This document shows positions 5,768 to 62,128 of a stretch of 64,000 nt of DNA, in pieces. The translations under genes were made by a program, and so were the position numbers. Within the stretch, counting starts at the first letter, position 1. The number at the start of each line of letters is the position of its first letter. Location of the stretch: assembly GCA_964016885.1 (NCBI GenBank), contig OZ024743.1:124868001-124932000 (forward strand). Direction: 5' to 3'. The notes beneath the pieces were generated by a model, which was given only the letters and a program-made list of their open reading frames with translations, made no database searches and was not told the DNA's origin. Source of the stretch: Eledone cirrhosa. Taxonomy: Eukaryota.

Positions 5768-5785
5768 ATATATATATATATATAT

Positions 5786-6860
5786 AAACGGAAAAAATGA
5801 AACAAAATTTCATTTCTCACTCTTAGTACGGCTGTTACTTAAATATAAGTATGTATACGTACATACATATATGTATACAGACGTATAGTAGTATGTATAT
5901 ATATACATACATGCACACATATATATATATGTACGTATGGATTTACCGAACATTTATTATAATGCTCGGTGTGTTTGTAAACAAACATCCCGAATTAAGC
6001 CGTATAGTGTCTAGCAACCATCGTTGCTCATTTGTTCAACACTGACAAAGGATCGATGCACTAGTTTCAAGCTTATTAGCTATCGTCAGCACTGTATACC
6101 TTCCTGCCAGATGATTGAACATCTGAAAGTATATAATTTCCTTAAGCATATTAACGGCTGAGCAGCCTAATTTGCATATCGAGTGAGTTAATCGGCCGGG
6201 CGCACCGAAAACAATAAACGGAAAAAATGAAACGAAATTTCATTTCTCACTCTTAGTACGGCTGTTACTTAAATATAAGTATGTATACGTACATACATAT
6301 ATGTATACAGACGTACAGTAGTATGTATATATATATACATACATGCACACATATATATATGTACGTATGGATTTACCGAACATATATTATAATGCTCGGT
6401 GTATTTGTAAACAAACATCCTTATATTTGTAAACAAACATACTTATATTTAAGTAACAGCTGTACTAAGAGTGAGAAATGAAATTTCGTTTCATTTTTTC
6501 CATTTATTGTTTTCGGTACGCCCCGCCGATTAACTCACTCAATATGCAAATTAGGCTGCTCAGCCGTTAATATGCATAAGGAAAGTATATACTTTCAGAC
6601 GTTCAATCATCTGGCAGGAAGGTATACGGTGCTGACGATAGCTAGTTCCTTTGTCAGTGTTGAACAAAAGAGCAACGATGGTTGCTAAACACTGTACGGC
6701 TTAATTCGGGATGTTTGTTTACAAACAGACCGAGCATTATAATAAATGTTCGGTAAATCCATACGTACATATATATATATATGTGTGTGCATGTATGTAT
6801 ATATATACATACTACTGTACGTCTGTATACATATATGTATGTACGTATACATACTTATAT
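5786..6860. repeat. Retrozyme-like family A: ~1.5 tandem 430-bp units (minus sense) plus one inverted unit
   Basis: AAACGGAAAAAATGAAAC recurs at 5786 and 6216 (period 430); 6438-6860 is the reverse complement of a full unit; the unit carries a minimal HHR and an octamer ATGCAAAT. Confidence 0.8.
6054..6094 (-). ncRNA. Minimal type I hammerhead ribozyme, mutated copy (GUG triplet)
   Basis: Minus strand: cagtg CTGACGA tAGCTaataAGCTt GAAAC TA GTG catcg. Confidence 0.6.
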
Positions 6861-6871
6861 ATATATATATG

Positions 6872-31141: not shown

Positions 31142-32379
31142 CCACCCTTGCAAACAGGGGAAAGCGGACGTAAAATGATGATGACATATATACATATAAC
31201 GGCGATGAATTTGTTTTGCAAAGTTTTTGATATGAAATCGTGTGTCGAAACAAATATTGTTATACATGGGGAGGGTCATGTTGTAATAATATTGCCAGAA
31301 ATAATAACAGAACACACTGTTTGGTTGGTTTTCGCTTCTGCATCTTTTATATCTCCATAGTTAATTTATTTGGCAATCAATGTGTATCATTGACTGACCA
31401 ACGGTTAACATACAGATATAAATATATATATATATAGTCTAACAAAGTTCTTTCATTGAACATTTGTAACATCATCAGTAGTACTATTTTCATGTTTCCT
31501 CCTATTGTGTTGTATTGTAATATTCACGCCATTTTTATTTTATTTATTTATTTATTTATTTATTTATTTTTGTCTCCGTCTCTGTGCATGCGTTTGCGTG
31601 TGTGTATAATGTTTGGTGTGTTTGGGTGTATGTGTTTTGGTTTTTGTATTCTATCTTTGTTTACTAATGTGTGTTTATATATGTGTTTGCTGTTATTGTA
31701 CTTGTGTTTAACTTTGGTTTTCTAAGCCCTATTTCGCTCAACTTCTCTCATTTGCTTACCTGTTGGGTCATTTCTATGTTTAGATATTATTTTAATTTCT
31801 ATGTTGCCTATATTACCGTCATGTTTTTGTCTGGCATGTTCGTATAGTACTGAACCATTTTTTTGTCCTTTTAATTACCCCCAGTGTTGGTCTATTCTTT
31901 CTCCTATGCTTCGAGCTGTCTCACCTATGTATGTCGTTGTCATGTTTCAGCAGGTACCCTCTGTACATCTTATGCTATAGACTACATTTCTAGTTTTACA
32001 ATTTATCTGGTGGTTCACTTTACATATAACACATTTCTTATTAGTACAGTGGGTTTTCTTAAAAGGGTATGTTTTGCTGATCAGGGATTTTACGGAAGTT
32101 CCTGGCTTTTCTACCACTTTAATCTTTAAGTGGGTTTTTGTTAGGGCCTTTCTACATTGGTTAGCTAATTTCCCCCCAGGGGTAGCATCCATGAACATAA
32201 CACTCTGGTATCTCTGGTTGTCGTACCATGAGGTGGCTTTCCCTATCTTATGTTTAGTCCTATCTAAACTATTCCATGATTTGCTCCTGTATAATAGGAA
32301 AATTCTTCTCATGTCCATTTCTATGAGGGTCTTATACTTCTCCATGGCTCCTTTGTACTCTGATTCTGTCTCTTTGGTT

Positions 32380-34700
32380 CAGATGAACAAAATTTATCCC
32401 ATTAAATTACCTTTTAATAAAAGAGTTTGTACACCACAACAAATAGATGACGAAACAGAGGCACAGTTTACCATAGCTAGAAATAAACTTAGACAAATAG
32501 TAGACCGATATACTAAGAGACAAAGTAGACCAGAAATCCAACAACTTGGAAGGAAACCTGTAGAAGGCCTAGTAAGCCTCAAGCAGTGCACAAGGGATGG
32601 TGAGATAGTATGTCTACCCACAGATAAATCTGGTAGGATGTCAATAGACAGCATGCCAAACTACATCAAGGCTATGCAACCCCCCATCATCAACACGAGC
32701 GAAACAACACAACAAACACATGAGGGGAGAAAGAAGATCCTCAATGCTCACATAATGATGAGGACCGACATCCTAAAGCCAAGCAGACACACTGCCAACA
32801 ACTTCCAGGCGTCTAACAATGACATACCACCCTTGTATGGGCTCCGCAAAGACCATAAGACAGCCAACGACCCGACGACAGGACCACCAACAAAACCTGT
32901 ATGCGGAGCCAATATTGCTAGCAACTACAGGATCTCTTGCTTCCTCTCGATGGTTATACGCCCCATAATTAAGATGTCCCCAGATATATGGGACAGTACA
33001 GAGGACCTCCTCAAGAGAATCAATGAGTGCAACAAAAGCAAAAACTTATCTAATTGCATAATAGGCAGTATGGATGTAGTATCTCTGTACCCATCCATTA
33101 ACATTGATTTTTCTGTGGAAAAATGTGTGGAAATAATCAATGAGAGCGAGGTGGAGTTCTGCGATGTCGACACAGATGAACTGGGCCTCCTACTTAGACT
33201 TACTTATGACACCGAGTACCTAGATACCATGACATTAACTGTTTCTGCCCCAGTAGACCCATAAAAGGTAGACCCCCCCCCACCACCATAACCTCAATGG
33301 CAAAAAGACCCCCATGGGAAGGTGGAATGGATGGACCAAAGCCATACGGACACCCCAAAACAATGATCACGTGAGAAAAATGGTCGCGCATGCAATAGGG
33401 CTAGTATTAAAACTTCCCTAAAGGGCCATATGTTTAAATTCAATGAAAAGATCAACAACCAGAATGAGGGAGCAGCCATTGGCGTCAGCATAGCTGGTGA
33501 TGTTGCCAATCTATTTATGGTATGGTGGGAAAGGAGACTCAAAGATCTCCTTGAAGAGAGCTCCATAGACCTTGTCATATACTTTTGTTACATAGACGAT
33601 ATTAATATAGTAATAAGAACACCCCCACAAGAGAGTACAAATGAACATGATTTAGAATATAGCACAATGGAAAGCATCCAGCAGATAGCTAACTCCATAC
33701 ACCAGAGTATAACTGTAACTGTTGACTACCCTTTCAAACACCCTAACAATAGACTACCTGTATTAGACACGGAACTCTGGATTAACACTATAAACGAGAG
33801 GGCCCAAATTCTCCACTCACGCTATGCTAAACCCATGGCCTCCAAATACCTGATACTCAAAAACTCAGCAATGTCCAGTAGTGCTAAGTTTAATATTCTG
33901 ATTGCAGACTTGGTACGAGTGATGAAGAATGTGTCCCGCATGTGCGACCTAACAGAAATGGAAAGACACATCCAACACTTCATCAACCGCATGCAGTTCT
34001 CTGGCTACAACCAAAGAGACAGAATCAGAGTATACAAAGGAGCCATGGAGAAGTATAAGACCCTCATAGAAATGGACATGAGAGGAATTTGCCCATTATA
34101 CAGGAGCAAATCATGGAATAGCTTAGATAGGACAGAACATAAGATAAGGAAAGCCACCTCATCGTAAGACAACTAGAGATTCCAGAGTGTCATGTTCATG
34201 GATGCTACCCCTGGGGGGAAATTAGCTAACCAATGTAGAAAGGCCCTAACAAAAACCCACTTAAAGATTAAAGTGGTAGAAAAGTCAGGAACTTCCGTAA
34301 AATCCCTGATCAGCAAAACATACCCCTTTAAGAAAACCCACTGTACTAATAAGAAATGTGTTATATGTAAAGTGAACCACCAGATAAACTGTAAAACTAG
34401 AAATGTAGTCTATAGCATAAGATGTACAGAGGGTACTTGCTGAAACATGACAACAACATACATAGGTGAGACAGCTCGAAGCATAGGAGAAAGAATAGAC
34501 CAACACTGGGGGGAATTAAAAGGACAAAAAAATGGTTCAGTACTATACGAACATGCCAGATAAAAACATGACGGTAATATAGATAACATAGAAATTAAAA
34601 TAATATCTAAACATAGAAATGACCCAACAGGTGGGCAAATCAGAGAAGCGAGCGAAAGAGAGCTTAGAAAACCAAAGTTAAACAGAAAATACGAATGGAA
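32380..34700 (+). pseudogene. PLE ORF (RT + GIY-YIG), frameshifted
   Basis: Segments of ORFs 32074-33264, 33430-34167 and 34192-34443, continuing in frame after the TGA. Confidence 0.85.
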
Positions 34701-34985
34701 TAACAACAACCATACCCAAACAAACAATACTGAGTTAAGAGTAATATAAATAAATAAATAAATATATACACAAGTACAATAACAACAAACACATATAAAC
34801 ACACACTAGTAAACAAAGATGGAATACAAAAACCAAAACACAAACACACAAACGCGAACACACACACCAAACATTATACACACACGCAAACGCATGCACA
34901 GAGACGGAGACATAAATAAATAAATAAATAAAATAAAAATGACGTGAACATTACAATACAACACAATAGGAGGAAACATGATAAT

Positions 34986-35035
34986 TGTACCACTGATGAT
35001 GTTGCAGAAGTGCAACGAAAGAACTTTGTTAGACT
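34986..35035 (+). ncRNA. Hammerhead-like motif in the PLE 3' region (degenerate)
   Basis: CTGATGA t GTTGCA gaag TGCAAC GAAA gives a perfect stem II; stems I and III are poor; degenerate mirror at ~31435-31485. Confidence 0.45.
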
Positions 35036-35226
35036 ATATATATATATACTTATATCTGAATTTTTAACCGTTGGTCAGTCAATGATAAACATCGATTGCC
35101 AAATAAATTAACTATGGAGATATAAAAGAAGCAGAAGCGAAAACCAACCAAACAGTGAGTGTGTTCTGTTATTATTTCTGGTAATATTATTACAACAATA
35201 TGACCCTCCCCAATTATAACAACATA

Positions 35227-35887: not shown

Positions 35888-36219
35888 TATATATATATAT
35901 ATATATACATATATATATCATCCTCATCATCATCATCACCGTTTCACGTCCGTTCTTCCTCGCTAGCATGGGTTATATGTATATATACATATTTATATAT
36001 ATGGGATAACAAGTTATTGTTATAGGTAATCCAGTTAGAGGTTATGAGTACTCCGCGTCATGGATAGTTTTAACGTACGGCATTGTTTGACTCAACAAGA
36101 TCTTTCCATAGTTATGCAGCAAGATCGCGGTAATTTCTATGCAGGTTATACTTGGAGTAATAATAGTTAAAGAAAGAAGAGTAACATGGTTGGCTGTACA
36201 ATAAGGGCTTTATTTAAAG

Positions 36220-36328
36220 TACTGACAATTGTTTCGTTGATCAAGTGCATCTAGAGTTCGCTAATCGCTTGAGATTGCGTTAATCGATCTCCAATACATT
36301 GTTTACCTCTGGTCAACACATCAGAGTA
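36220..36328 (-). ncRNA. Variant type I HHR with enlarged stem II in the PLE 3' end (sense copy)
   Basis: Reverse complement of 38794-38902. Confidence 0.55.
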
Positions 36329-36948
36329 TGTATATATGAAAATAATTAACTCGAGGCAAGATTTATATAGAAAAACAGCGTAAAACAAAAACAATAACAT
36401 CAATAATAAAACAGCGTATAATTAATTAAAACAATAACATCAATAATAAGACATGTATGGGTAAATAGATAGAGAAGTTATAGACGTAAAAAGTAAAATA
36501 TAAGATAGGGTACATTAAAAAATAATAAGAAAATGAGGAAATGGAAAATATAAAGAAATAAATGAGTGTGAAAGTGCAAGTGTTAGTAGTTTTTGAGTCA
36601 GTGTTCTTATAAGGATTCGTTGGTGCTAACATGAGAAACTAGATTTGAGATGTAGATAAATATGTGTAGAGGGTCCGATAAAAGAAAAGACAATAAATTG
36701 ATTAATTGATGTATACATGTATTATGTTTATGGGCTAGGGATGACAGGACGTTTGATAAACGCTTGTTGTAAATGTTTTGCTGATTGTTCTATTTTAATG
36801 GGGTTGATGGAGAGAGGGTGGAAGTGTACAGAGATTTATGATCCAGTGACCGGTTGGTAGTTTGATAGCTAATAGTGGTGCGATGGTGTGTATTCTATGT
36901 GTTAAAATTTAGGTGGTTCAGTACTAATTTGGGGATTGCTGGTTCAAA

Positions 36949-37563
36949 TCATGGTGGTTTGAAGTTCGTAAATCTAGTAACTATTTTATGCTTACAGAAA
37001 ATAGATCTTTCTATTTTGCTGTTAAGCAGCATCCTATCGTACCTTAAAATATGTAGTAGTTCCAAATTACAAAGCCCGCAGTGGGACATACCGTTGCTGT
37101 AGGTTTTTGCTACTGATAATTTCGACCAGCTAATCTTATATTCTAGGTTTTTGTCCTTAAGTTGCCAGATTTTATTGGTGAGCGTTGTAGAGTTCTCCAG
37201 TGCATGGTTCTTCATGGAGTGTCTGTGGACGTAACACCTATTCTTAAACTCCCCAGCTGTGGAACCTATGTAGTGCCAGGTAGAGTTGCCTGAATTCACA
37301 GTACACAGGTATACCATACTCAAATCCAGGCATCTATTTCGTAGTGGGCACTTATCTGGTAGGTGGCAATTACAATTTGAGGTTTTATTTTGTGCATGTT
37401 CGTCGTTGCGGTATTGTAAGTTGTTGTGGGTGGGTTGTGATTTAGGCCTATTAATGTTTTGTTGTGATGTGTTCTGATGCGTTTGTGGTTGTGATGTTGT
37501 TATGTGTTTGTGTTTTGTATTTGGTGTTATGGTGCGCATTGGTAGGTTAATTTCTTTAGACAT
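36949..37563 (-). CDS. GIY-YIG endonuclease portion of the PLE
   Basis: MVYLCTV..WHYIGSTAGEFKNR..H..WQLKD..CGLCNLE..LN..CKH. Confidence 0.8.
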   Translation of the reverse strand: MSKEINLPMRTITPNTKHKHITTSQPQTHQNTSQQNINRPKSQPTHNNLQYRNDEHAQNKTSNCNCHLPDKCPLRNRCLDLSMVYLCTVNSGNSTWHYIGSTAGEFKNRCYVHRHSMKNHALENSTTLTNKIWQLKDKNLEYKISWSKLSVAKTYSNGMSHCGLCNLELLHILRYDRMLLNSKIERSIFCKHKIVTRFTNFKPP

Positions 37564-38793
37564 ATTTTTGTGGTTGATCTTACGTATGTGCGATTCTATG
37601 TTGGCTGCAGTAGAGTATGAAAGTTTTAGTTTTACTATTGAAGATTTTATGGTATTTGTGTAGTGTAGGGAAGTGCTTATCTATTAGTTTAAAGAATGTA
37701 GAAGGTAGTTTAGTTTTTATAGAGGAGTTGAATATTGGATTGAACCATAGGTATTTTCTTTCTCTGGATCTTCTATAGTTTTGGGGGGTCCTAATATTAG
37801 TGCTCTGTTTCGGTTATTTTTGGTGCTCGTTGTCTAATTCTATGCTTAGTCCTATGCTTGTTATTTCTGTATGAGCGGGTAGTGTTGATGTCATTAGGTT
37901 TGTTGTTGTTGTCTCTATCTAGTATGCATTTCAGCTTCTCCTTATGTCCAGCCTTATGTAAAGCTATGTTATAATAGTTTGTTAAAAATTTCTAGGTTCA
38001 AAGATAGGCGGGATATTCTGAGGGATATACTATGTGCTATGGAGGTACTTATGGATCGGGGGTGGTTTGAGTTGTAACTAATGTAGGCTAGATTTTCGTT
38101 ATTCTTATGGAAGGGCTCTATTAATCTTGTGTTTAGGTTGAGAGTTACATCTAAAAAATTTGCTTTTTTAGAGTTAAGTTCAAAAGTGATACCTAGGCCT
38201 AGTTTTTTAAAGAATATTTTAATGTTTTTACGTAATCTTTCCATGTTCTGATTATTTAAGTTTTTGGCTAGAAGGAATGTATCGTCTCTATAAATTCCTC
38301 CTTGGAGGTTACTGATTTCCTTATGTAAGTTCTGAGCTATATATATTCCCACCAAGTCCGTTATCTGCGCTGAGTCGTTAGATCCCATTGTGATATCGAA
38401 GCTATTCTGTCTGTTTTTTCGTTTGCAGTAATTATTTTCGAATTAATGATAGTCCTTCTAGCAGCTAGTATTATATTAATTTCGTCCGAGGTAAGGTCCA
38501 AAATTCTTATAAGAACACTGACTCAAAAACTACTAATATCTACTTGCACTCTCACACTCATTTATTTCTTTATATTTTCCATTTCCTCATTTTCTTATTA
38601 TTTTTTAATGTACCCTATCTTATATTTTACTTTTTACTTTTTACATCTGTAACTTCTCTATCTATTTACTATACATGTCTTATTGATGTTATTGTTTTAA
38701 TTATACGTTATTTTGTTATTGATGCTATTGTTTTGATTTTACGCTGTTTTTCTATATAAATCTTGCCTCGAGTTAATTATTTTCATATATACA

Positions 38794-38902
38794 TACTCTG
38801 ATGTGTTGACCAGTGGTAAACAATGTATTGGAGATGGATTGACGCAACCTCAAGCAATTAGCGAACTCTAGATGCACCTGATCAACGAAACAATTGTCAG
38901 TA
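38794..38902 (+). ncRNA. Variant type I HHR with enlarged stem II (inverted copy)
   Basis: tact CTGATGT gttga..~70 nt..tcaac GAAAC AATT GTC agta; palindromic stem III ACAATTGT; core has U where A9 is expected. Confidence 0.55.
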
Positions 38903-39082
38903 CTTTAAATAAAGCCCTTATTGTACAGCCAACCATGTTACTCTTCTTTCTTTAACTATATATATATATATATATTCAGTAGTAAGCAAATCAAGACCAC
39001 AAACTCACATAGAAGACATTAGTCAAAGAGTATCAACATTAAGTGCAGTTTAATATAAAGAAGAGAGAGGGTAATAATGTCA

Positions 39083-39204
39083 GTTTACAATTGTTTCACT
39101 ACTCCATATAATATTTCTGGATCGATCGATGGTAAGATCGTTATTGATTTGATGCGGAGGAAGATAAGTAACATAAGATAATATTATGGAGCAGATCTCG
39201 GAAG
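39083..39204 (-). ncRNA. Degenerate HHR with enlarged stem II in the PLE 3' end
   Basis: Minus: CCGA-GA t CTGCTCCATA ... TATGGAGTAG t GAAAC AATT GTA; homologous to 61887-62007. Confidence 0.45.
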
Positions 39205-40538
39205 AGATAATGAAATTATTAATATATATAAAGTAGAAATAAAAATAAAATAAGAGGGTTACGTGTCCGTAAAGAATCCTCAGATTAGCAGCTCCCTAAA
39301 TGGGGTCCCATGGCACTGGAGAACTCAAGTGTATGGTATAAACAAACATTACATATCTGTCGAGGCTGAAAGTAAACAATGCCGCCTATCGCATAACAAG
39401 ATGGCTTCTTGTAGGAAAACTACCCTATTGTATAGAGATGGGTTTCAAGGGAGGTAACTCCTTGAAAAGCCAAAGGCTCCGGATGAGAGTTGTAATCAAG
39501 ATAATGTAAGGGACGTAGCTTATAGGTGTAGTCACAATGAGATTTGTAACTAAGATAATGCATGGGAGGTAACTTATAGGTGTTTATGTGGTGGACTAAC
39601 GATGTCTTTAGTTTGTTAGTTATAGGGAGGGGCATGATTAAAGGATAGGCTAAGTTGGGTCGAATATTCTGTTAACGAAGGAGCTCGCTCTGCGGTGGTG
39701 GCAGTTGATGACCAACTCATTCCTGTCATTGATGGGGAGTGGCCTTGACAAAGTTATGTGATAGGCCTCGGTAAGACAGAGATCGCAAAAATTTCTTCTC
39801 CCATTAAACGCTCGAGATCTAGCTAAGATATCCCAAGTTAGTGAATGTTCAATGTTGGCTAGTTTAAGGTTTTTAATGAGCCTGGCTAGAGAAGTTGAGC
39901 ATTTATGGCTAGGGTCACGGAAGGAAAATGAGTGCGCATTATAGCGGACCTTAAAGGGGTTAGATGTAGAGCCAATATAAGAGCTAGTAGATGAGGCCGT
40001 TCTAACCATGCACCTATATAGAATATTGGGCGTAAGGCACTGCCCATTAAGCGGGCACGCAGTGGGGTTACGGCAGTTGCAATTACGATTGCGATTAGTA
40101 GGGGTAGGGTTGTTTAAACTATGCGGCTGGTGTGTAGTAATGGGATTGGAGGGGGGAGTTCTGCTACTAGGATGAGTATTGGTATGGTTGCATGGTGTAC
40201 TTATGGTGAGTGGTAGTGCCGCAGGGGGGAGAGTTATATTTTTTTAGTTTATTATGGTTGCCGAATGCGATGTGGCTAGCTAGGTTCGGTGTAGTGGAGG
40301 AGATTTTAATATTGTTTTTATTAAAGAGTTTGTAGTATCTATGGTTAGGGGGGAAGTGTTTAGATAGGATGGAGAAGAAACGTTTAGGGATGTTAGTAGC
40401 TAAATTAGATGAGAGAGGAGAGTTAAGCCAGGTGATTTTTCTAGGCCTGTTACTTCTATGGGGTCTACCAGAACTGGCAGGGGTATTAACAGGGTTATCA
40501 TTGCCAAGGTGTTTGCCAATGGTAAGCCTATTAACCTT

Positions 40539-41795
40539 TCATATTCTAGGGTTGATTCTGAATCTGCTACTAGGAGTAGGGAGTAGGCCTCTGCCACTAT
40601 TACGATTACCTGTATAGGTATTGGTAGGCCTAGACCTCCGGCAAATCTGGCTACATGCTAATGTGTTTATAGTTCTAGTGTTAAAGTTATTGGGATTGTG
40701 GTGAAGTTCTGTGTTATGGCCTTTAGGTATGTAGTAGATAGATTGTGCATAACCAGACTCAGAAAGGGCCTTATTATAATATGCTGCATGGACATTGAAT
40801 ATCTCCTCATTGGCGGATAGCATGGAAATCCTATATGAGATAGAATTAATGACCACTCTGATGACTGCCGTTGGGTGATTAGAGTGCGGGCTAATATAAG
40901 TAAGTATCTCACCTGGTTTATGATAAGGGTAATATAAATTGTTAGTAAGATGAAGGGTGACATCCAGGAAATTCACTACCTTATGGTTATGTTCGATGGT
41001 AATGGATAGACCGTTATTTAAAAAAAATTTATGTAGTTGTTTTTTGAGCAATTCAATGCGACGATCCATGCAATTGTGGACTGCAAATAGGGTGTCGTCC
41101 CTATATATTCTACCTTGCAAAAGTGGGAGCTCAGCTTTAATGTTGTGTAACATGTAGATTCCAACTAAGTCTGTGACTTGCGCAGAATCGCTAGAGCCCA
41201 TTGTGATATCAAAGTTATCCATTCTGTCCTTTCTTGTCCAGAATGAGCCCTTGAACTCAATAATGGTCTGCCTAGCCATAAGGATGATGTCAATCTCTTT
41301 ATTAGTTATGTCTGAATTAGTGCAAGCTAGGGTTAATGCTTTGTTAAACAGTGCCGGGGATATAGATGCGTAGTAACTGTCAATGTCGAATTGGAAAAAC
41401 CTCATCGAGCCTGTGGACTCAAGATCTGAGAACCATCTAATGACTTGGCCGGTGTTAGACCACAGTTTATAGGTGATAGCATCTCGCATCCCAGAGATGA
41501 TCCTATCGAGAATGTTATTGCTGATACAACCCAAGTCAGAGGTGGTTGGGCTAATAAGTCTAATAGAAGGGTTCCCAATAAAGTTGGGCTTATGATCCTT
41601 GAGGGAGAATCTTGGAGTTGTGGGTACATATGGGTAGGTGAATCTGTCAAGATGTAAATCCTTAACGAAGGCCTGGGCTTTGCGGTTAAGTAAATTTACA
41701 CTGGAGGGTTTAGTTTTTTTATAATTCTTATTAAGTTCCTTAAGGAGGAAAGAGTTGTAAGTTTCAGAAGGCATGGTATATAAATTTCTAGTTTT
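40539..41795 (-). CDS. PLE reverse transcriptase (open ~415 codons; the N-terminus of the listed ORF is spurious)
   Basis: RT motifs as above; the ORF track extends into TA and antisense LINE sequence beyond 41795. Confidence 0.8.
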   Translation of the reverse strand, partial: KTRNLYTMPSETYNSFLLKELNKNYKKTKPSSVNLLNRKAQAFVKDLHLDRFTYPYVPTTPRFSLKDHKPNFIGNPSIRLISPTTSDLGCISNNILDRIISGMRDAITYKLWSNTGQVIRWFSDLESTGSMRFFQFDIDSYYASISPALFNKALTLACTNSDITNKEIDIILMARQTIIEFKGSFWTRKDRMDNFDITMGSSDSAQVTDLVGIYMLHNIKAELPLLQGRIYRDDTLFAVHNCMDRRIELLKKQLHKFFLNNGLSITIEHNHKVVNFLDVTLHLTNNLYYPYHKPGEILTYISPHSNHPTAVIRVVINSISYRISMLSANEEIFNVHAAYYNKALSESGYAQSIYYIPKGHNTELHHNPNNFNTRTINTLACSQICRRSRPTNTYTGNRNSGRGLLPTPSSRFRINPRI

Positions 41796-41850
41796 ATATA
41801 TATATATATATGTATGTATATATACATATATCATATAATTATATATATAT

Positions 41851-42623
41851 AGTGAGACCTGGGCATTGTGTGCAGAGGATATATGCAGACTGGAGAGGAA
41901 CGAAGCTTGCATGCTCCGCTGGATGTGTAATAGTAATATACGTGAACGGCAAAGCATAAACGAACTAAGGGAAAAATTATAAATAAGAGGGATCAGATGT
42001 TTACTCGAGAGAAGACTACGTTGGTATCGTCACGTGATGCGCATGAAAGACGAGAGCTGTATAAAAAAGTGCAGGGCAATAAAAATAGACGGTAGCCACG
42101 GAGTAGGCAGACCCAGAAAAACCTGGGACGACTTGATAAATTCCGACCTCACACACTTACACCTCTCCAAGACAATGTCTCTGGACCGAGATCTTTGGCG
42201 TTACACAGTAATACAGAAGACCCGCCTTACCTAAGTACAAAGTGAAACCTACTACAGTCAGTAGGCACTTCTAACAAAATACACCCCCGTCCCACTACCC
42301 CCACCCCATCCACACCACCCCTTTCAATGTAAAGTTATGTTGGTACCACAACATCCAGCCCGAAACAAATGAGGTCGCGTAGGTGTCACGACAAAAAAAC
42401 ACACAGTCCACGCTGTAATGTGGCCGTGTGGGTAACACGGTAAAAACCTCCCAGTCCACACTGTAAACGTGGTTGGTGTGAGGAAGGGCATCCAGCCGTA
42501 GAAAACCCGCCAGACAGTCCTATACGAGCAAGACAACCAATCTTGCCTCAAGTGGGAAAACTCCCGTCCAAACCCATGCAAGCGTGGAATATGGACGTTA
42601 AACGATGATGATGATGATGATGA
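41851..42623 (+). mobile_element. 5'-truncated RTE LINE
   Basis: [23 protein letters not shown]; 3' UTR and (GAT)n. Confidence 0.9.
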
Positions 42624-49162: not shown

Positions 49163-51276
49163 TATCATCATCATCATTTTACGTCCGCTTTTCCCCGCTT
49201 GCAAGGGTGGGACGGGAACTGATTCTGGCTTGATTTCTACAGCTGGATGCCCTTCCTAACACCAACCTCATTTACAGTGAGTGCTGGGTGCTTTTTTCCG
49301 TGGCGCCTACACGTCCACTTTACAGTGTGGGCTGGGTGCTTTTTTGCCGTGGCACCTCCACGACCACTTTGCAGTGGGAGGGTGTGGGGGCATATTGTCT
49401 ATATGCTTCAACTTCAGCTTGTTCCTGTGGGGGGTCGGGTCTTTTGTATTACCGTATGACGCCAGAGGTCATGGTCGTGTCATTGCTCCTTTCTCCCTCA
49501 TCCCAGGTCTTCTTGGGTCTCCCCACTCCGCTCCTCTCCTGCACACAGCATGTGTTTCCTCTGATGCTCAGTCTCTCTCTCAATTCGTTTATACTTTGCC
49601 GTTCGCGTATATTACTATTACACATCCATCGGAGCATGCAAGCTTCATTTCTTTCTAATCTGCGCAAGTCTTCTACAGACAGTACGCAGGTTTCACTTCC
49701 ATATAACATTGCTGTTCGTATACACGCATCATACAGTCTGCCTTTCATTTTGAGGGAAAAGCCTTTTGCAGCTAGCAGTGGCAGTAGCTCCCTGACCTGC
49801 TTCCATCCCGTTCTTACTCTAGTTATTGTACTTACCGAACACCCACCTCCGCTGCCAATTCAGTCACCTAGGTAGCAGAAGCTGTCTACTGTTTCTACAG
49901 ACCCCTCCCTAAGTTTGGTGGTGCTTGTTTCCTCTGGTTGTTTGCGGTTTGCTGTCCCAGCACAGCTGTTACATGTGAAGCCTACATTCTTAGTTGAACT
50001 TCCTGAGATCCCACTACATCACTTGTGTACCCATTGTTTGCATTTGGGTCAGAGGATGGATTTCCTACCTACACCTTTCCTACATACTGAGCAAGACCAT
50101 TTCCCTGAGGGAATCTGGGTCCTGTTTTCTCGTCTACTTACAAGGACCTTAGTCTTTGTCAGGTTGACTTTGAGACCCTTTCTTTCTAGTCCCTGCTTCC
50201 ATGTTAGACATTTTTTCTCTAGTTCCACCATAGATTCAGCTATAAGTGCGAGATCATCCCCATGCAGGAGTTCCCATGGGCATCCGGTCTTAAACTCCTC
50301 CGTTATTGTCTGCAAAACTATAATGAACAGGAGAGGGCTAAGATCAGAGCCCTGGTGGACACCGACCCGTATGCTAAATTCTTCGCTATACTCATTTCTA
50401 ACTCTAACTTTGTTGACTGCTCCTCTATACATGGCTTGTACAGCTTTCAAAAGCCATTCATCAACTCCTAGTTTTCTAAGAGCCCACCAGATTATAGTAC
50501 GGGGGACTCTGTCGAAGGCTTTTTCCAGATCGACGAATGCCAGGTAAAACGGCTTACTTTTAGCTAGGTACTTTTCCTGTAACTGCCTCACAAGGAAGAG
50601 GGCATCAGTGGTGCCTTTTCATGGTACAAACCCAAATTGCATCTCATCTAGTTTCACCCGGTCCCTAATCAGCTGTGCTATAACTCTTTCCGTTACTTTC
50701 ATGACCTGATCCATCAGCTTTATACCTCTATAGTTTCCTCTATCTAGTGCATCACCTTTACCTTTGTAGCATTTGCCAATGATGCTACTGCACCAATCGT
50801 TTGGTATGACACCTCCTAGTATGATCTGGTTAACAATTCGTGTGGTTATGGTGTGCCCTACCGACCGAGATGCCTTCAGCATCTTGGCAGCTATACCCGA
50901 TGGACCGCTTGCCTTCCCTGTCTTAATATCTTTAATTGCCTTACTTACTATGCTGCTGCTGACTTGTACTGCTGGCCCCTCTATAGGGTCCACTTGGGGT
51001 AGGGTCTGTTTTTCCCATGCATTCTCCTCGTTTAGTAATCTTTCATAATGGCTCTTCCACGCATCTTTCTTCTCAGCACTTGTGGGGGCAAGCTCATCTT
51101 TATCATTCCGGATACACTTCTCTCCAATGACATCACAATTCTCTCTGACACACTGCCTCACAATCTTGAACACCTCCTGTTTCTGGTCCTCACGTTGCAA
51201 AACATGCTTGAATTTTCTATCCTCTGCTTCCATCCAAGCTAAGTATACTTGTCGCCTAGCTTCCCTCCTGGTCTCT
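49163..51276 (-). mobile_element. 5'-truncated RTE LINE; its 3' UTR matches the SINE tail
   Basis: RT motifs in 50049-51270, PHD, internal deletion near 49530; 5' end in (TA)n. Confidence 0.9.
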
Positions 51277-51288
51277 ATACATATATAT

Positions 51289-51321
<33 letters not shown>

Positions 51322-51599
51322 CATACATATATATATATAAACATATACATACATATAAACATATATACATACATATAAACATATATACATACATATAAAC
51401 ATATATACATACATATATATATATATATATACATATATATATACATATATATATACATATATATACATATATATATACATATATATATAAACATATACAT
51501 ACATATATATATACATATATATATAAACATATACATACATATAAACATATATACATACATATGTAAACATATATACATACATATATAAACATATATACA

Positions 51600-52015
51600 T
51601 AAAAACAAATAACGAAACGAAATTAAATTTCGTTTCGTTTGTAACTCACTTTTGTATGACTGACGCTTAAACAATTAAGTTAAAGATGTACATCCATATA
51701 TGTATACTGAAATACTAGTATGTATATGAATACACACACGTATACATATGTAGATGTACCAAGTTTTTTCACTGGTCACTTTACTGTGAGTGGCCAGCTA
51801 TTCTGTATGTAAACACACAGACAAACCGGTTTTTAGAGTCATACTGGTTTTTGAGGAAACACCTTTCCTCTATTCTCCAGAAAGCCAGACAAGGAATATT
51901 GAACTAGTTTCGTTGTTGTTACAACTCATCAGCAATATTTACCTATCTTCCGGCCTCTCTAGAGAATCGTAAAAGCACATATCGTTATATGCTTTTTCTA
52001 TGAAAATTTAACTTA
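51600..52015 (-). repeat. Diverged relative of retrozyme family A
   Basis: Same module order as 5786-6215 (GAAAC.AAATT...TCACT, TA-rich core, GTAAACA.AC, GACAA.GGA, HHR) at low identity. Confidence 0.65.
51895..51939 (-). ncRNA. Canonical minimal type I hammerhead ribozyme
   Basis: Minus: AATATTG CTGATGA GTTGT aaca ACAAC GAAAC TA GTT / CAATATT: 7-bp stem I, 5-bp stem II, palindromic ACTAGT stem III, GUU triplet. Confidence 0.85.
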
Positions 52016-52145
52016 ATCATATATACATACATATATATATACATACATATATGTATATATACATATAGATATACATATATACATATATATATATAGACAT
52101 ACATATATATACACATATATATACGTAAATACATATTTACATATA

Positions 52146-52290
52146 TCATCATCATCATCAACGTTTAACGTCCGTGTTCCACGCTTGCATGGGTTTGGAC
52201 GGGGGGTAGTCCCACTTGAGGCAAGAGTGATTGTCTTGCTCGCATAGGACTGTATATATATACCGAGACTGAGTACCGCCAAATGTCTTG
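52146..52290 (-). mobile_element. RTE 3' end remnant with internal deletion
   Basis: (CAT)n tail, TTTAACGTCCGTGTTCCACGCTTGCATGGG, then a jump to TGAGTACCGCCAAA. Confidence 0.7.
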
Positions 52291-55493: not shown

Positions 55494-55586
55494 TTCTGCA
55501 TCATGCATTCTCATCTCGGGAACAATTTTGAATAGTGCCAGTTCGTAATTTGAACTCGGGAATTTTATATTCTCCGAGTGAAAAGA

Positions 55587-55673
55587 ACATTCTGACGAGA
55601 GTTTATCTTTGTAATGGAAGCCCGCAAGGACTATCCATTTATTTTTGAGACTCGAAACTGAATCGGTAAAGGT
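55587..55673 (+). ncRNA. Type I hammerhead ribozyme (copy 1)
   Basis: acatt CTGACGA gagttt...agactc GAAAC TGAATCG GTA / aaggt. Confidence 0.7.
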
Positions 55674-56073
55674 AACCATAGTAAGTAGAGTAAATTGTTT
55701 GAAATTTATTTTGAAACTTTTTCTTATTTGCTAAACCTTGATTATATATGTTCTGGCTCGTTAATTTATTAACCTGCCATTGAACCACTTTGGCATATGG
55801 TAGGATAATACATGTGTCCCTATTCGCTTTTTGCGTGTAGGGATATATACTTTATTATTATTAATCTCCCCCTGGTCGAGATGAAATTTGGTCGTTTTGA
55901 CTACTGCTATTTATAGTGGTAGTAGATTGACCTCCATGCTTCTGCCTTCTATCTTTGCACACAGCACTGGACAGAATTGCTTCCACATCATTCATTCTCA
56001 TCTCGGGAACAATTTTGAATAGCGCCAGTTCATAATTTGAACTCGGGAATTTTATATTCTCCGAGTGAAAAGA

Positions 56074-56161
56074 ACCTTCTGACGAGAGTTTATCTTCTCA
56101 ATGGAAGCCCGGCAAGGACTATCCATTTATTTTTGAAACTCGAAACTGATTCGGTAAAGGT
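56074..56161 (+). ncRNA. Type I hammerhead ribozyme (copy 2, fully paired)
   Basis: ACCTT CTGACGA GAGTTT [AATGGA..TCCATT inner helix] AAACTC GAAAC TG ATT CG GTA / AAGGT. Confidence 0.8.
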
Positions 56162-56233
56162 AAACATAATATTTGAAATTCTTTGAAATTTATTTTGAAA
56201 CTTTTTCTTATTTGCTAAACCTTGATTATATAC

Positions 56234-57197
56234 ATCATCATCATCATCATCATCATCATCAAGGTTTAGCGTCCGTGCTCCACGCTTGCATGGGTTTGGA
56301 CGGGGGTTTTCCCACTTGAGGCAAGAGTGGTTGTCTTGCTCGCATAGGACTGTCTGGCGGGTTTTCTACAGCTGGATGCCCTTCCTAACACCAACCACAT
56401 TTACAGTGTGGGGCTGGGAGGTTTTTACCGTGTTGCCTACACGGCCACATTTACAACGTGGACTGTGTGTTTTTTGTCGTGACACCTATACGATCTCAAT
56501 TGTTTCGGCCTGGATGTTGTGGCACCAACATAACTTTACATTGAAAGGGGCGGTGTGGATGGGGTGGGGGTGGTGGGACGGGGTTGTGTTTTGATAGAGA
56601 TGCCTACTGACTGTAGTAGGTTTTACTTTGTATTTAGGTAAGGCGGGTCTCCTCTATTACTGAGTACCGCCAAAGGTCTCGGTCCAGTGACATTGTCTTG
56701 GAGAGGTGTAAGTGTGTGAGGTCGGAATTTATCATGTCGTCCCAGGTTTTTCTGGGTCTGCCTACTCCGTGGCTACTGTCTATCTTTATTGCCCTGCACT
56801 TTGTTATACAGCTGTCGTCTTTCATGCGCATCACATGACCGTACCCTTCTCTCGAGTAAACAACATCTGATCCCTCTTATTTCTAAATTTTTCCTTAGTT
56901 CGTTTATGCTTAGCCGTTCACGTATATTACTATTGCACATCCAGCGGAGCATGCAAGCTTCGTTCCTCTCTAGTCTGCGTATATCCTCTGCACACAATGC
57001 CCAGGTCTCACTGCCATGCAGCATTGCTGTTCGTATGCAGGCATCGTATAACCTGCCTTTCATTTTTAGGGAGAACCCTTTAGCGGCTAATAGTGGTATA
57101 AGCTCTCTGAACTTTTTCCATCCAGTTCTGACTCTAGCTACTGTATATTCAGAGCACCCTCCCCCACTGCTGATTTTGTCACCCAGGTAACGGAACA
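56234..57197 (-). mobile_element. 5'-truncated RTE LINE
   Basis: [21 protein letters not shown]; 3' UTR; (CAT)n; 5' end in (TA)n. Confidence 0.9.
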
Positions 57198-57329
57198 TAT
57201 ATATATATATATATATATACATATATATATACATATACATATATATATATATACATATACATATACATATATATATATGTAAGTATGTATATACACGTAC
57301 ATACATATATGTATACAGACGTACAGTAG

Positions 57330-57375
<46 letters not shown>

Positions 57376-57540
57376 CATGCACACATATATTTATATACGT
57401 ATCGGTTTACCGAAAATTTATTATAATGCTCGGTTTGTTTCTTTGTAAACAAACAGCCCGAATTACGCCGTACAGTGTTCAAGCAACCATCGTCGCCTTT
57501 TTATCGTTTTCGGTGCGCCCGACCGACTAACTCACTCGAT

Positions 57541-57548
57541 ATGCAAAT
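57541..57548 (+). promoter_or_regulatory. Octamer motif ATGCAAAT within the family A unit (also 6170-6177 minus, 6544-6551, 59703-59710)
   Basis: Exact match ~75 bp upstream of the HHR in all four unit copies; function not shown. Confidence 0.35.
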
Positions 57549-57623
57549 TAGGCTGCTCAGCTGTTAATATGCATAAGGAAAGTATATACTTTCAGATGTT
57601 CAATCATCTGGCAGAAAGGTATA

Positions 57624-57664
57624 CGATGCTGATGATAGCTAATAAGCTTGAAACTAGTACATCG
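57624..57664 (+). ncRNA. Minimal type I hammerhead ribozyme (intact core)
   Basis: CGATG CTGATGA tAGCTaataAGCTt GAAAC TA GTA / CATCG. Confidence 0.8.
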
Positions 57665-58152
57665 TTCCTGTGTCAGTGTTGAACAAAAGGGCGGCGATGG
57701 TTGCTTGAACACTGTACGGCGTAATTCGGTCTGTTTGTTTACAAAGAAACAAACCGAGCATTATAATAAATGTTCGGTAAACCGATACATACATATATAT
57801 ATGTGTGCATGTATGTATATATATACATACTACTGTACGTCTGTATACATATATGTATGTGCGTATACATACATACTTACATTTAAGTATCAGCCGTACT
57901 AAGAGTGAGAAATGAAATTTCGTTTTATTCTTTTCCATTTATATATATATCTGTTTTTTAACCTGATTAGTTCTTTCGTTACTTTGGTATTGCATGGTTG
58001 GGTTTTGCCTACCGCAATTTCCAATTTGTCAAGCTATTTAAGCGTATGTTATTACTCTAAGGACCTACACTTATTGTGCTGTGCTACTCATTCCTTATGT
58101 TATGTCGACTTTGCTTGGCTACAGCCAAAGCTTCGATTTTACTAAGCTTCCA

Positions 58153-59371: not shown

Positions 59372-59389
59372 CACTCATATATATATATA

Positions 59390-60090
59390 TAAGCATGTAT
59401 ACGTATATACATATATGTATACAGACGTACAGTAGTATGTATATATATACATACATGCACACATATATATATATATGTACGGCTAAATTCGGGTTGTTTG
59501 TTTACAAACAAACCGAACATTATAATAAATGTTCGATAAACCCATACGTACATATATATATGTGTGTATGTATATATATATGCATACTACTGTACGTCTG
59601 TATACATATATGTATGTACGTATACAGAGTGAGAAATGAAATTTCATTTCATTCTTTTCCATTTATCGTTTTCGGTACGCCCGGCCGACTAACTCACTCG
59701 ATATGCAAATTAGGCTGCTCAGCCGTTAATATGCATAAGGAAAGTATATACTTTCAAAAGTTCAATCATCTGACAGGAAGGTATATAATGCTAACGATAG
59801 CTAATAAGCTCGAAACTAGTTTATTGTTCCTGTGTCAGTGTTGAACAAAAAGGCGACGATGGTTGCCGAACACTGTACGGCTTAATACGGGCTGTTTGTT
59901 TACAAACAAACCGAACATTATAATAAATGTTCGGTAAACCCATACATACGTATATATATATGTGTGCATGTATGTATATATATACATACTACTGTATGTC
60001 TATATACATATATGTATGTACGTATACATGCTTATATTTAAGTATCAGCCGAACTAAGAGTGAGAAATTTCATTTCATTTCATTCTTTTC
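59390..60090. repeat. Retrozyme family A: short inverted partial + ~1.4 tandem units (HHR at 59786-59826 with CTAACGA mutation)
   Basis: GTACGGCT.AA..CGGG.TGTTTGTTTACAAAC recurs at ~59477 and ~59875. Confidence 0.85.
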
Positions 60091-60179
60091 TCTCTATATA
60101 TATATATACACACACACACATATATATATACACATATATATATATATACTCATATATATATATATATATATATATACTC

Positions 60180-61223: not shown

Positions 61224-62128
61224 TATTCATTAGTTAAGCAAAACAAGACCACAAATTTCACAAGGAAGACATTATTAAAAGATTGTCAACATATTTAGTT
61301 TGATGCAAAGAATGTAGAGAATAATAATAATAATAATATTAATAATAATATTGCCCGTTTACAATTGTTTCGCTACTCCATATAATATTTCTGGATCAGA
61401 TGACTATGTATCATAATTGATCTGGTTCAGTTGAAAATAATTAACTTAACTAATGAATATATATATACATATATATATACATATATATATACACATATAT
61501 ACACACACACATATATATATATACACATATAAAAAACAGAGTGGCTCATCGGAACTCAAAGGAATATAAATTAAAATAATGTTACATAATATAATGTTCC
61601 ATATATTAGTTTTTACTATGGTGCCTTTGTTTCATCAGCTGTCAGCCATAATCAAGCAGTACTCATCTGTCGAGGCTGCATTGTGTGAGATCTGCCTATG
61701 GTTACCCATAGGCAGATCTCACACAATGCAGCCTCGACAGATGAAGGCAGATCTCACAAAATGCAGCCTCGACAGATGAGTACTGCTTGATTATGGCTGA
61801 CAGCTGATGAAACAAAGGCACCATAGTAAAAACTAATATATGGAACATTATATTATGTAACATTATTTTAATTTATATTCCTTTGAGTTCCGATGAGCCA
61901 CTCTGTTTTTTTAAATATGTTAATTATTTTCAACTGAACCAGATCAATTATGATACATAGTCATCTGATCGAGAAATATTATACGGAGTAGCGAAACAAT
62001 TGTAAACGGGCAATATTATTATTATTATTATTCTCTACATTCCTTACATCAAACTAAATATGTTGACAATCTTTTAATAATGTCTTCCTTGTGAAATTTG
62101 TGGTCTTGTTTTGCTTAACTAATGAATA
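61224..62128. mobile_element. ~900-bp palindrome of two head-to-head PLE 3' ends (related to 38975-39370)
   Basis: Arms are reverse complements with apex TGCCTATGG-TTAC-CCATAGGCA at ~61693-61714; ATTCATTAGTTAAGCAAAACAAGACCACAAA matches 38975 onward. Confidence 0.85.
61887..62007 (+). ncRNA. Variant HHR (CCGAUGA core) with ~75-nt stem II loop
   Basis: gtt CCGATGA GCCACTCTGT ... ACGGAGTAGC GAAAC AATT GTA / aac. Confidence 0.55.

Follow-up and report, generated by a model that had tools for sequence, protein, structure and literature searches.

A type I hammerhead ribozyme in a 5'-truncated non-coding repeat, a likely Penelope-mobilised non-LTR retrozyme

Results

The hammerhead and the unit that carries it

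The 64-kb stretch of DNA analysed here (the window) is repeat-rich animal DNA, with (TA)n tracts, pieces of LINE-type reverse transcriptase (RT) and endonuclease, and a tRNA-like SINE head. The minus strand of 51602-52008 carries a truncated copy of a unit that we call family Q, with a hammerhead ribozyme at 51895-51939. The features of this copy and its borders are as follows, each with the evidence for it.

51602..52008, minus strand: long arm, a monomer of the non-coding, strongly folded family Q unit, truncated at its 5' end to 407 of about 467 nt (fold, contigs)
51884..51951, minus strand: type I hammerhead ribozyme with a bulged stem I (Rfam match, alignment, covariation, fold)
51933..51943, minus strand: 5' arm of stem I, AAUAUUG (51939-51933), and the upstream GG-UA bulge (51943-51940) (alignment columns 9-19; common to family A)
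51926..51932, minus strand: core CUGAUGA (sequence, Rfam match)
51912..51925, minus strand: stem II GUUG/CAAC with loop 2 UAACAA (alignment; three of four pairs changed on both sides relative to family A)
51902..51911, minus strand: GAAA, palindromic helix III ACUAGU (51908-51903) and triplet GUU (alignment, fold)
51893..51901, minus strand: 3' arm of stem I, CAAUAUU, and CC (alignment; pair probabilities 0.63-0.94)
51872..51967, minus strand: long outer stem around the ribozyme, 51967-51949 with 51889-51872 (fold; present in family A with another sequence)
51688..51870, minus strand: series of hairpins 3' of the ribozyme, the last a long AU-rich hairpin (51759-51688) (fold; same order in family A)
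51602..51673, minus strand: one-sided 72-nt tail with a terminal hairpin at 51639-51611; the family A tail has 58 nt (fold, alignment)
52007..52017, plus strand: 11-nt inverted arm, a copy of 51684-51674 (alignment; ends where the family A inverted arms end)
51276..51601: microsatellite rich in (TA)n, adjoining the long arm at its 3' end (repeat listing)
52019..52146: microsatellite rich in (TA)n, just beyond the inverted arm (repeat listing)

From 51939 to 51895 the minus strand reads, in order, AAUAUUG, CUGAUGA, GUUG-UAACAA-CAAC, GAAA, CUAG, U, U and CAAUAUU. The core, stems and triplet were all found as the original prediction had placed them, and the motif is homologous to the family A hammerhead. 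It has the type I core CUGANGA / GAAA / UH, and helices I and II around the core, with the open ends in helix I, are supported by predicted pair probabilities of 0.63-0.99 as well as by covariation. By hammerhead numbering, the cut is predicted to fall between 51902 and 51901. The motif had been called perfect, which is right for the core but not for helix III (probability 0.00 in the monomer fold); the triplet, moreover, is GUU, a slower one. The text of PMC3138052 lists GUU as cleavable and GUG as non-cleavable. The Rfam model Hammerhead_HH9 (RF02275) matched 51879-51950 with 37.7 bits (E value = 2.3e-8; gathering score, 52), and no hammerhead family reached its gathering threshold in the 64-kb window. 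Rfam miRNA matches around the unit were rejected as microsatellite artefacts.

Compensatory stem changes between families Q and A

Family A has three insertions in the same window.

5780..6868: family A insertion 1, a full 428-nt unit and partial tandem (minus strand) and an inverted permuted unit (plus strand); both ribozymes damaged
57270..57945: family A insertion 2, an inverted partial arm, then a full unit (plus strand) whose ribozyme (57610-57677) is the only one of family A that is intact
59385..60100: family A insertion 3, an inverted arm, a partial tandem and a full unit (plus strand); ribozyme core altered at G5

Their hammerheads lie at 57610-57677 and 59772-59839 (plus strand), 6041-6108 (minus strand) and 6613-6658 (plus strand, core deleted). 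One of the four is intact, at 57610-57677; the damage in the other three is a changed G5, a GUG triplet with a broken stem I, and a deletion (one each). A covariance model built from four hammerheads found one more copy in the window (at 6613, with the core deleted) and nothing else there at E < 0.1. The letter at the cleavage site is A, U and G in family A (57659, 59821 and 6059, respectively) and U in family Q (51902).

The 68-nt hammerhead block of family Q aligned with that of family A without gaps. Compared with the copy at 57610, it was identical at 16 of 17 core letters, 22 of 28 unpaired columns and 20 of 40 paired columns. With the structure fixed on the core, 7 of 20 pairs had changed on both sides, a count that none of 500 shuffles reached and that compares with 0 to 2 in slid controls. 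Against the intact copy, all seven Watson-Crick pairs with two-sided changes had stayed Watson-Crick (indicative P value = 0.0008; 0.005 allowing G·U), bearing out the earlier claim that the changed stems still pair; of the 20 pairs, one is broken in the Q copy and two are U·U in family A. These P values are indicative because two lineages (Q and family A) were compared, with a shuffle control that ignores relatedness, and because the motif was noticed for its pairing.

The stems themselves need a more careful description than they had been given. CGAUG/CAUCG and AGCU/AGCU, quoted for family A, do belong to the 57610 copy, but they leave out the U·U of stem II: positions 10.1-11.1 of this stem are mismatched in family A (U·U or U·C), followed by AGC/GCU and the loop UAAUAA. 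In register, the stems II of both families have four positions and a UAAYAA loop. Stem I is not entirely different, as had been stated, since three of its seven pairs are unchanged; three others are changed on both sides, and one is U·U in family A. Stem I of both ribozymes has the GG-UA bulge, and loop 2 reads UAAYAA in both; a tertiary contact is expected there.

Another stretch of the window, 55495-56235, is a partial tandem whose units measure about 490 nt. Each unit has CUGACGA, followed by a long helix and GAAAC, and lacks a closing stem I; this is possibly a third, decayed ribozyme family.

Homology and fold outside the ribozyme

Over the whole unit, family Q is 57% identical to family A, and family A copies are 89-92% identical among themselves. 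A lack of homology between the units outside the hammerhead would have refuted the original prediction, and such homology was found 3' of the ribozyme: three separate segments gave z scores of 3.6-7.0 (at most 1 in 500 shuffles as good), and all segments combined gave a z score of about 12-15. The 57 nt on the 5' side of the ribozyme showed no significant homology between Q and A (z score of -0.9 to 1.1 against shuffles). The flanks, which had been described as far from family A, are not unrelated to it.

The fold of 51602-52008 had a predicted energy of -137.4 kcal/mol (z score = -9.4; 0 of 30 shuffles as good), compared with z scores of -0.6 to 1.4 for five control stretches, and family A units gave z scores of -5.6 to -12.4. 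Units of both families thus show the high self-pairing by which non-LTR retrozymes are recognised. The conserved order of hairpins beyond the ribozyme suggests that more than cleavage has been selected. In counts over the whole unit, which are weak because they rest on an alignment made from sequence only, two-sided changes still paired in 18 of 26, 18 of 29, 13 of 23 and 15 of 25 cases (P values = 0.015, 0.066, 0.22 and 0.13). A stem that seemed to close 51595-52020 by pairing its two ends was rejected as an RNA feature, because the inverted arm gives rise to it. The word ATGCAAAT, which we take to be the octamer motif, part of snRNA-type promoters, occurs in the 5' part of family A copies (57540-57547, 59702-59709 and others); the corresponding part of family Q is absent from the window.

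Selection on the whole fold, or mutation bias, might also make stems covary, with cleavage not the selected function. Such an explanation would fit the strong fold of the middle part of the unit without the ribozyme (51765-51871; z score = -3.5), the two of three stem I changes that run from CG to UA on both arms, in the direction of CpG decay, and the damage to three of the four family A ribozymes in the window. However, the stem II changes (A-U to U-A, G-C to U-A and C-G to G-C) are not CpG decay, damage is expected among passive insertions, and, at an overall identity of 57%, loop 2, the GG-UA bulge and all but one of the 17 core letters have been kept; we consider this explanation very unlikely. 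Selection on cleavage, as originally proposed, can fairly be inferred from the alignment for the source elements of these two lineages, Q and A, with 16 of 17 core letters kept and paired columns that are 50% conserved yet still pair. It does not apply to the 51602-52008 locus itself, because here a single monomer, truncated at its 5' end, stands alone, and its ribozyme is of a type that depends on dimers.

Abundance, unit length, and closure of family Q

In sequencing run X1, possibly the source of the window DNA, 1047 contigs matched the Q unit: 525 at an identity of at least 99%, 301 at 95-99%, 169 at 90-95% and 52 below 90%. Variation at 10% of depth or more was seen at three sites, at one of which the window copy departs from the majority. 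None of these sites lies within the ribozyme, in a sample of 3 such variants in 417 nt, and the GUU triplet is part of the majority sequence. Summed contig depth in X1 is not a copy number. The prediction that several subfamilies exist is upheld, since the Q copy is 57% identical to A and yet near the majority of the 1047 contigs. For the same reasons, and given the 89-92% identity among A copies, Q is better described as a second family of its own than as a diverged family A relative: it is homologous to A, as had been proposed, but it is no decayed A copy.

A 503-nt contig of run X10 (contig X10-9) runs from 51967 to 51602, continues with 60 other letters and then runs from 52008 to 51938. 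Its ends overlap by 30 nt and close a unit of 473 nt, or about 467 nt without 6 inserted letters; a circle and tandem DNA would give the same contig, and the strand is not readable from contigs. From this closure it follows that the window copy is about 60 nt short on the 5' side. Six X1 contigs depart from the window sequence beyond 52008, and the sequence that lies beyond 52008 in other Q copies was not found in the window.

Head-to-tail organisation was seen in this one X10 contig for family Q and at three junctions for family A (6221, 6500 and 59659; unit of 428 nt). The 51602-52008 locus is a monomer, no Q tandem was found in the 64-kb window, and one further feature by which non-LTR retrozymes are recognised, a pair, was likewise not found within it. 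The units of about 467 nt (Q) and 428 nt (A) are short non-coding repeats with one type I hammerhead each. The only open reading frames (ORFs) of the Q region begin in microsatellite-rich frames and had no Pfam match, and no ORF with RT plus GIY-YIG, as in an autonomous Penelope-like element, was found in the Q unit, which closes in 473 nt.

We also considered whether 51895-51939 might be a domesticated single-copy ribozyme, like amniote HH9/HH10, selected in place. HH9 is its best Rfam match, with which it has in common a type I topology, a bulged stem I, a 4-bp stem II and a 6-nt loop, and it is a solo copy with an intact core. An intact core needs no selection at the locus, however, because the sequence of the copy is close to that of most members of a large family. 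The match lies under the gathering score (37.7 versus 52 bits), and helix III is of the dimer type and five letters shorter than in HH9. Unlike HH9, a conserved single locus, the ribozyme belongs to a high-copy mobile repeat, here a truncated copy between microsatellites and LINE/SINE pieces. We therefore regard domestication as extremely improbable.

Insertion layout and Penelope-like elements

Penelope-like elements are described as inserting with 5' truncation, partial tandems, an inverted arm, a one-ended tail of 30-40 bp and (TA)n targets (bioRxiv 2021.04.23.441226). A layout of this kind, with a truncated arm, an inverted arm, a one-sided tail and (TA)n at both ends, was found in all four window insertions of families Q and A. 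The inverted arm of the Q copy stops at alignment column 401, followed by (TA)n, and all three family A inverted arms stop at or just behind column 400, also followed by (TA)n. The long arms extend past this site by 58 nt (family A) or 72 nt (Q), again into (TA)n. The chance of the 11-nt inverted arm at 52007-52017 is about 0.002, and about ten-fold more without two letters that it has in common with the unit end. In X1, (TA)n was joined at 51674 in one contig and at 51668 in four. The last 60-90 nt, with two hairpins, are likely to be the recognition and priming region.

Three remnants of Penelope-like elements, with matches to RT and weak ones to GIY-YIG, also lie in the window, and no sequence link between them and the Q and A units was found. 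Among 17 homologs of one of the RTs, the only named one was from Argonauta hians (45% identical), which, taken together with the SINEs of octopuses, makes an octopod the likely source of the window. A PDB search with a Penelope-like RT gave no matches. One remnant (31260-35219) has RT pieces at 32074-34167 (plus strand) between long inverted repeats; a CUGAUGA-U-6 bp helix-GAAA motif at 34993 resembles the minimal hammerhead of Penelope-like terminal repeats (pLTRs), and a decayed copy of it lies at 31478 (minus strand). The other two (36163-41957, minus strand) have RT at 37969-38388 and 40539-41957 and GIY-YIG-like sequence at 36949-37563 and 39650-40009. GAAAC-AAUU-GUH, with a palindromic helix III but without an intact CUGAUGA, occurs in the terminal repeats of the 36163-41957 remnants and in repeats at 61371 and 61993. 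A 352-nt contig of run X10 (record 10) matches only 36 nt of the Q tail (51620-51655, with 5 differences), is unlike it on both sides and could be another family or an autonomous element with a common tail.

The unit might instead be the terminal repeat of a 5'-truncated autonomous Penelope element, with no free-standing retrozyme. The insertion layout would be equal, hammerheads are known in pLTRs (PMC4209133), and retrozymes homologous to pLTRs are described (bioRxiv 10.64898/2026.07.22.740005). We nevertheless find this improbable. The X10 contig closes after 473 nt, and family A measures 428 nt from junction to junction, so there is no room for an ORF. In addition, the ribozyme is canonical, with a 4-bp helix II and a bulged stem I, and not of the minimal type described for pLTRs (PMC4209133), and the unit has no match to the Penelope remnants of the window.

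A predicted dimer-type helix III and a proposed mechanism

Helix III consists of one pair capped by CUAG, within the palindrome ACUAGU. It is missing from the predicted monomer fold, in which the core CUG is mispaired with UAG (probability of 0.92), and two copies are predicted to cofold at 3.4 kcal/mol below two monomers. Helix III is thus predicted to form only in dimers. According to PMC4209133, metazoan type I hammerheads have a helix II of 4 bp and a helix III of 1-2 bp with a palindromic loop, and such short helices III make them dimer-dependent. A hammerhead of the same type from axolotl is reported to cleave poorly as a monomer and efficiently as a dimer, and circular RNAs are described from coral, mussel and axolotl, as is ligation by RtcB (PMC7229834). 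For vertebrate retrozymes, one of nine predicted dimers was reported to cleave in vitro and eight were left uncleaved (bioRxiv 10.64898/2026.07.22.740005).

We consider it highly likely that the type I hammerhead lies in a 5'-truncated copy of a non-coding repeat of about 467 nt, homologous to family A, that is a non-LTR retrozyme mobilised by Penelope-like elements. By analogy with the systems above, tandem source copies would be transcribed, neighbouring hammerheads would build helix III between them from the ACUAGU palindrome and cleave behind the GUU triplet, and the unit-length RNA would probably be closed to a circle by a host ligase. The RT and GIY-YIG endonuclease of a Penelope element may then copy the circle into (TA)n tracts, which would leave truncated, partly tandem and inverted arms and a one-sided tail. 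The compensatory stem changes would have arisen in source elements once lineages Q and A had separated, and the solo copy at 51602-52008 is probably a recent, passive insertion.

Family Q sequence in runs labelled as other organisms

Words of the Q unit were present in 20 public runs from 17 studies, with 16 organism labels and one wastewater label; half or more of the words were present in 10 runs (8 studies, 8 organism labels). The ten runs with shares below half, of which X18 was among those compared, were left out as evidence, and the comparison covered 4 of the 24 listed runs. Also left out were the raw Hi-C run X21 of organism E, with no matching read in 12.8 million, and runs X23 and X24, which contain hardly any words of the unit. 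No RNA set was listed among the holders, which bears neither way on expression. The wastewater piece, of 157 nt, did not differ from the window copy. The closed unit of X10, a run labelled as organism H, has four substitutions that are rare in X1 (0.6-3.4% of depth) and a 5-letter insertion found at 0.02% of X1 depth. Three of the substitutions are A-to-G changes on the strand of the ribozyme, where A-to-I editing is indistinguishable from alleles. All four give G·U with the best predicted partner, which is too weak to be counted as evidence: one partner is confident (0.94) and the rest are not (0.20-0.47), and the same outcome is expected for 141 of 260 transitions.

One reading of these matches is that the Q circle is also found beyond this genome and travels from host to host as RNA; the spread over runs and studies and a closed unit with X1-rare substitutions in organism H could be cited in its favour. 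Depth speaks against it: two foreign contig sets had depths of 10 and 6 (2 contigs and 1 contig), compared with a summed depth of 2-7 × 10^5 over 1047 contigs in X1, the pattern of carry-over, diet or environment. We rate such movement as highly improbable. The low-depth matches are most likely carry-over between pooled libraries, or food, and related species are a possible source. If X10 is carry-over, we infer from its rare alleles that they suggest one source template, e.g., an expressed locus or another individual. The chance is slender that a hammerhead circle of about 470 nt, besides being repeated in the genome of this animal, occurs as free RNA in wastewater and in hosts unrelated to it; if true, it would be a retrozyme crossing into viroid-like transmission in animals.

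Relation to known retrozymes

Family Q appears to be a new addition to the non-LTR retrozymes, a group with examples in corals, mussels and amphibians. Like those described from Acropora, Mytilus and axolotl (PMC7229834), it has an AT-rich non-coding unit a few hundred bases long with a single canonical type I hammerhead, a highly self-paired fold that leaves the ribozyme free, a head-to-tail form and Penelope-like elements nearby in the genome. Its helix III resembles that of axolotl HHR_Amex1, with one pair and a palindromic tetraloop, and helix II of family A starts with a U·U, as does that of HHR_Amex2 (both PMC7229834). In contrast to the retrozymes of that account, the Q unit is longer (467-473 nt versus 150-450 bp), the copies are monomers or partial tandems with inverted arms and not long arrays, the triplet is GUU, and a circular RNA is predicted for the family.

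With Penelope-like elements and pLTR hammerheads as described (PMC4209133; bioRxiv 2021.04.23.441226), the units have in common truncation, partial tandems, the inverted arm, the one-sided tail, (TA)n and a dimer-type hammerhead; they differ in having no RT/endonuclease ORF, a canonical and not a minimal hammerhead, and a tail of 58-72 nt versus 30-40 bp. Vertebrate retrozymes are argued to be non-autonomous Penelope derivatives in a study whose scope lies outside the invertebrates (bioRxiv 10.64898/2026.07.22.740005). The units studied here resemble them in the proposed Penelope origin, in common solo monomers and in a unit length within 51-972 bp. Homology to pLTRs is reported there (Xenopus), whereas none was found here, where the link is the insertion layout.

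Cephalopod retrozymes were absent from the literature matches listed, in a search outside of which lie subscription journals and the supplement of PMC7229834, which may list some; the main text of an Octopus vulgaris repeat annotation, as far as it was available, names no ribozyme, hammerhead or retrozyme (PMC13282606). Hammerhead pattern scans gave no hits in viral contigs or prokaryote genomes and eight loci in metagenome contigs, none of them homologous to the Q or A units (best BLAST E value = 0.47; best model score = 14.7 bits). Metagenome contigs L002, L007 (about 520-645), L003 and L005 have unrelated hammerhead-like cores with GAAACUAGU; these lie in both arms of a long inverted repeat in L002 and L007 and in a 180-nt tandem repeat in L005.

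Two related retrozyme families, Q and A, are thus added from this genome, which is probably that of an octopod. Their Penelope-type insertion layout, with inverted arms that end at one homologous site in families that are 57% alike, gives direct genomic support, from an invertebrate, for the proposed mobilisation of animal retrozymes by Penelope elements.
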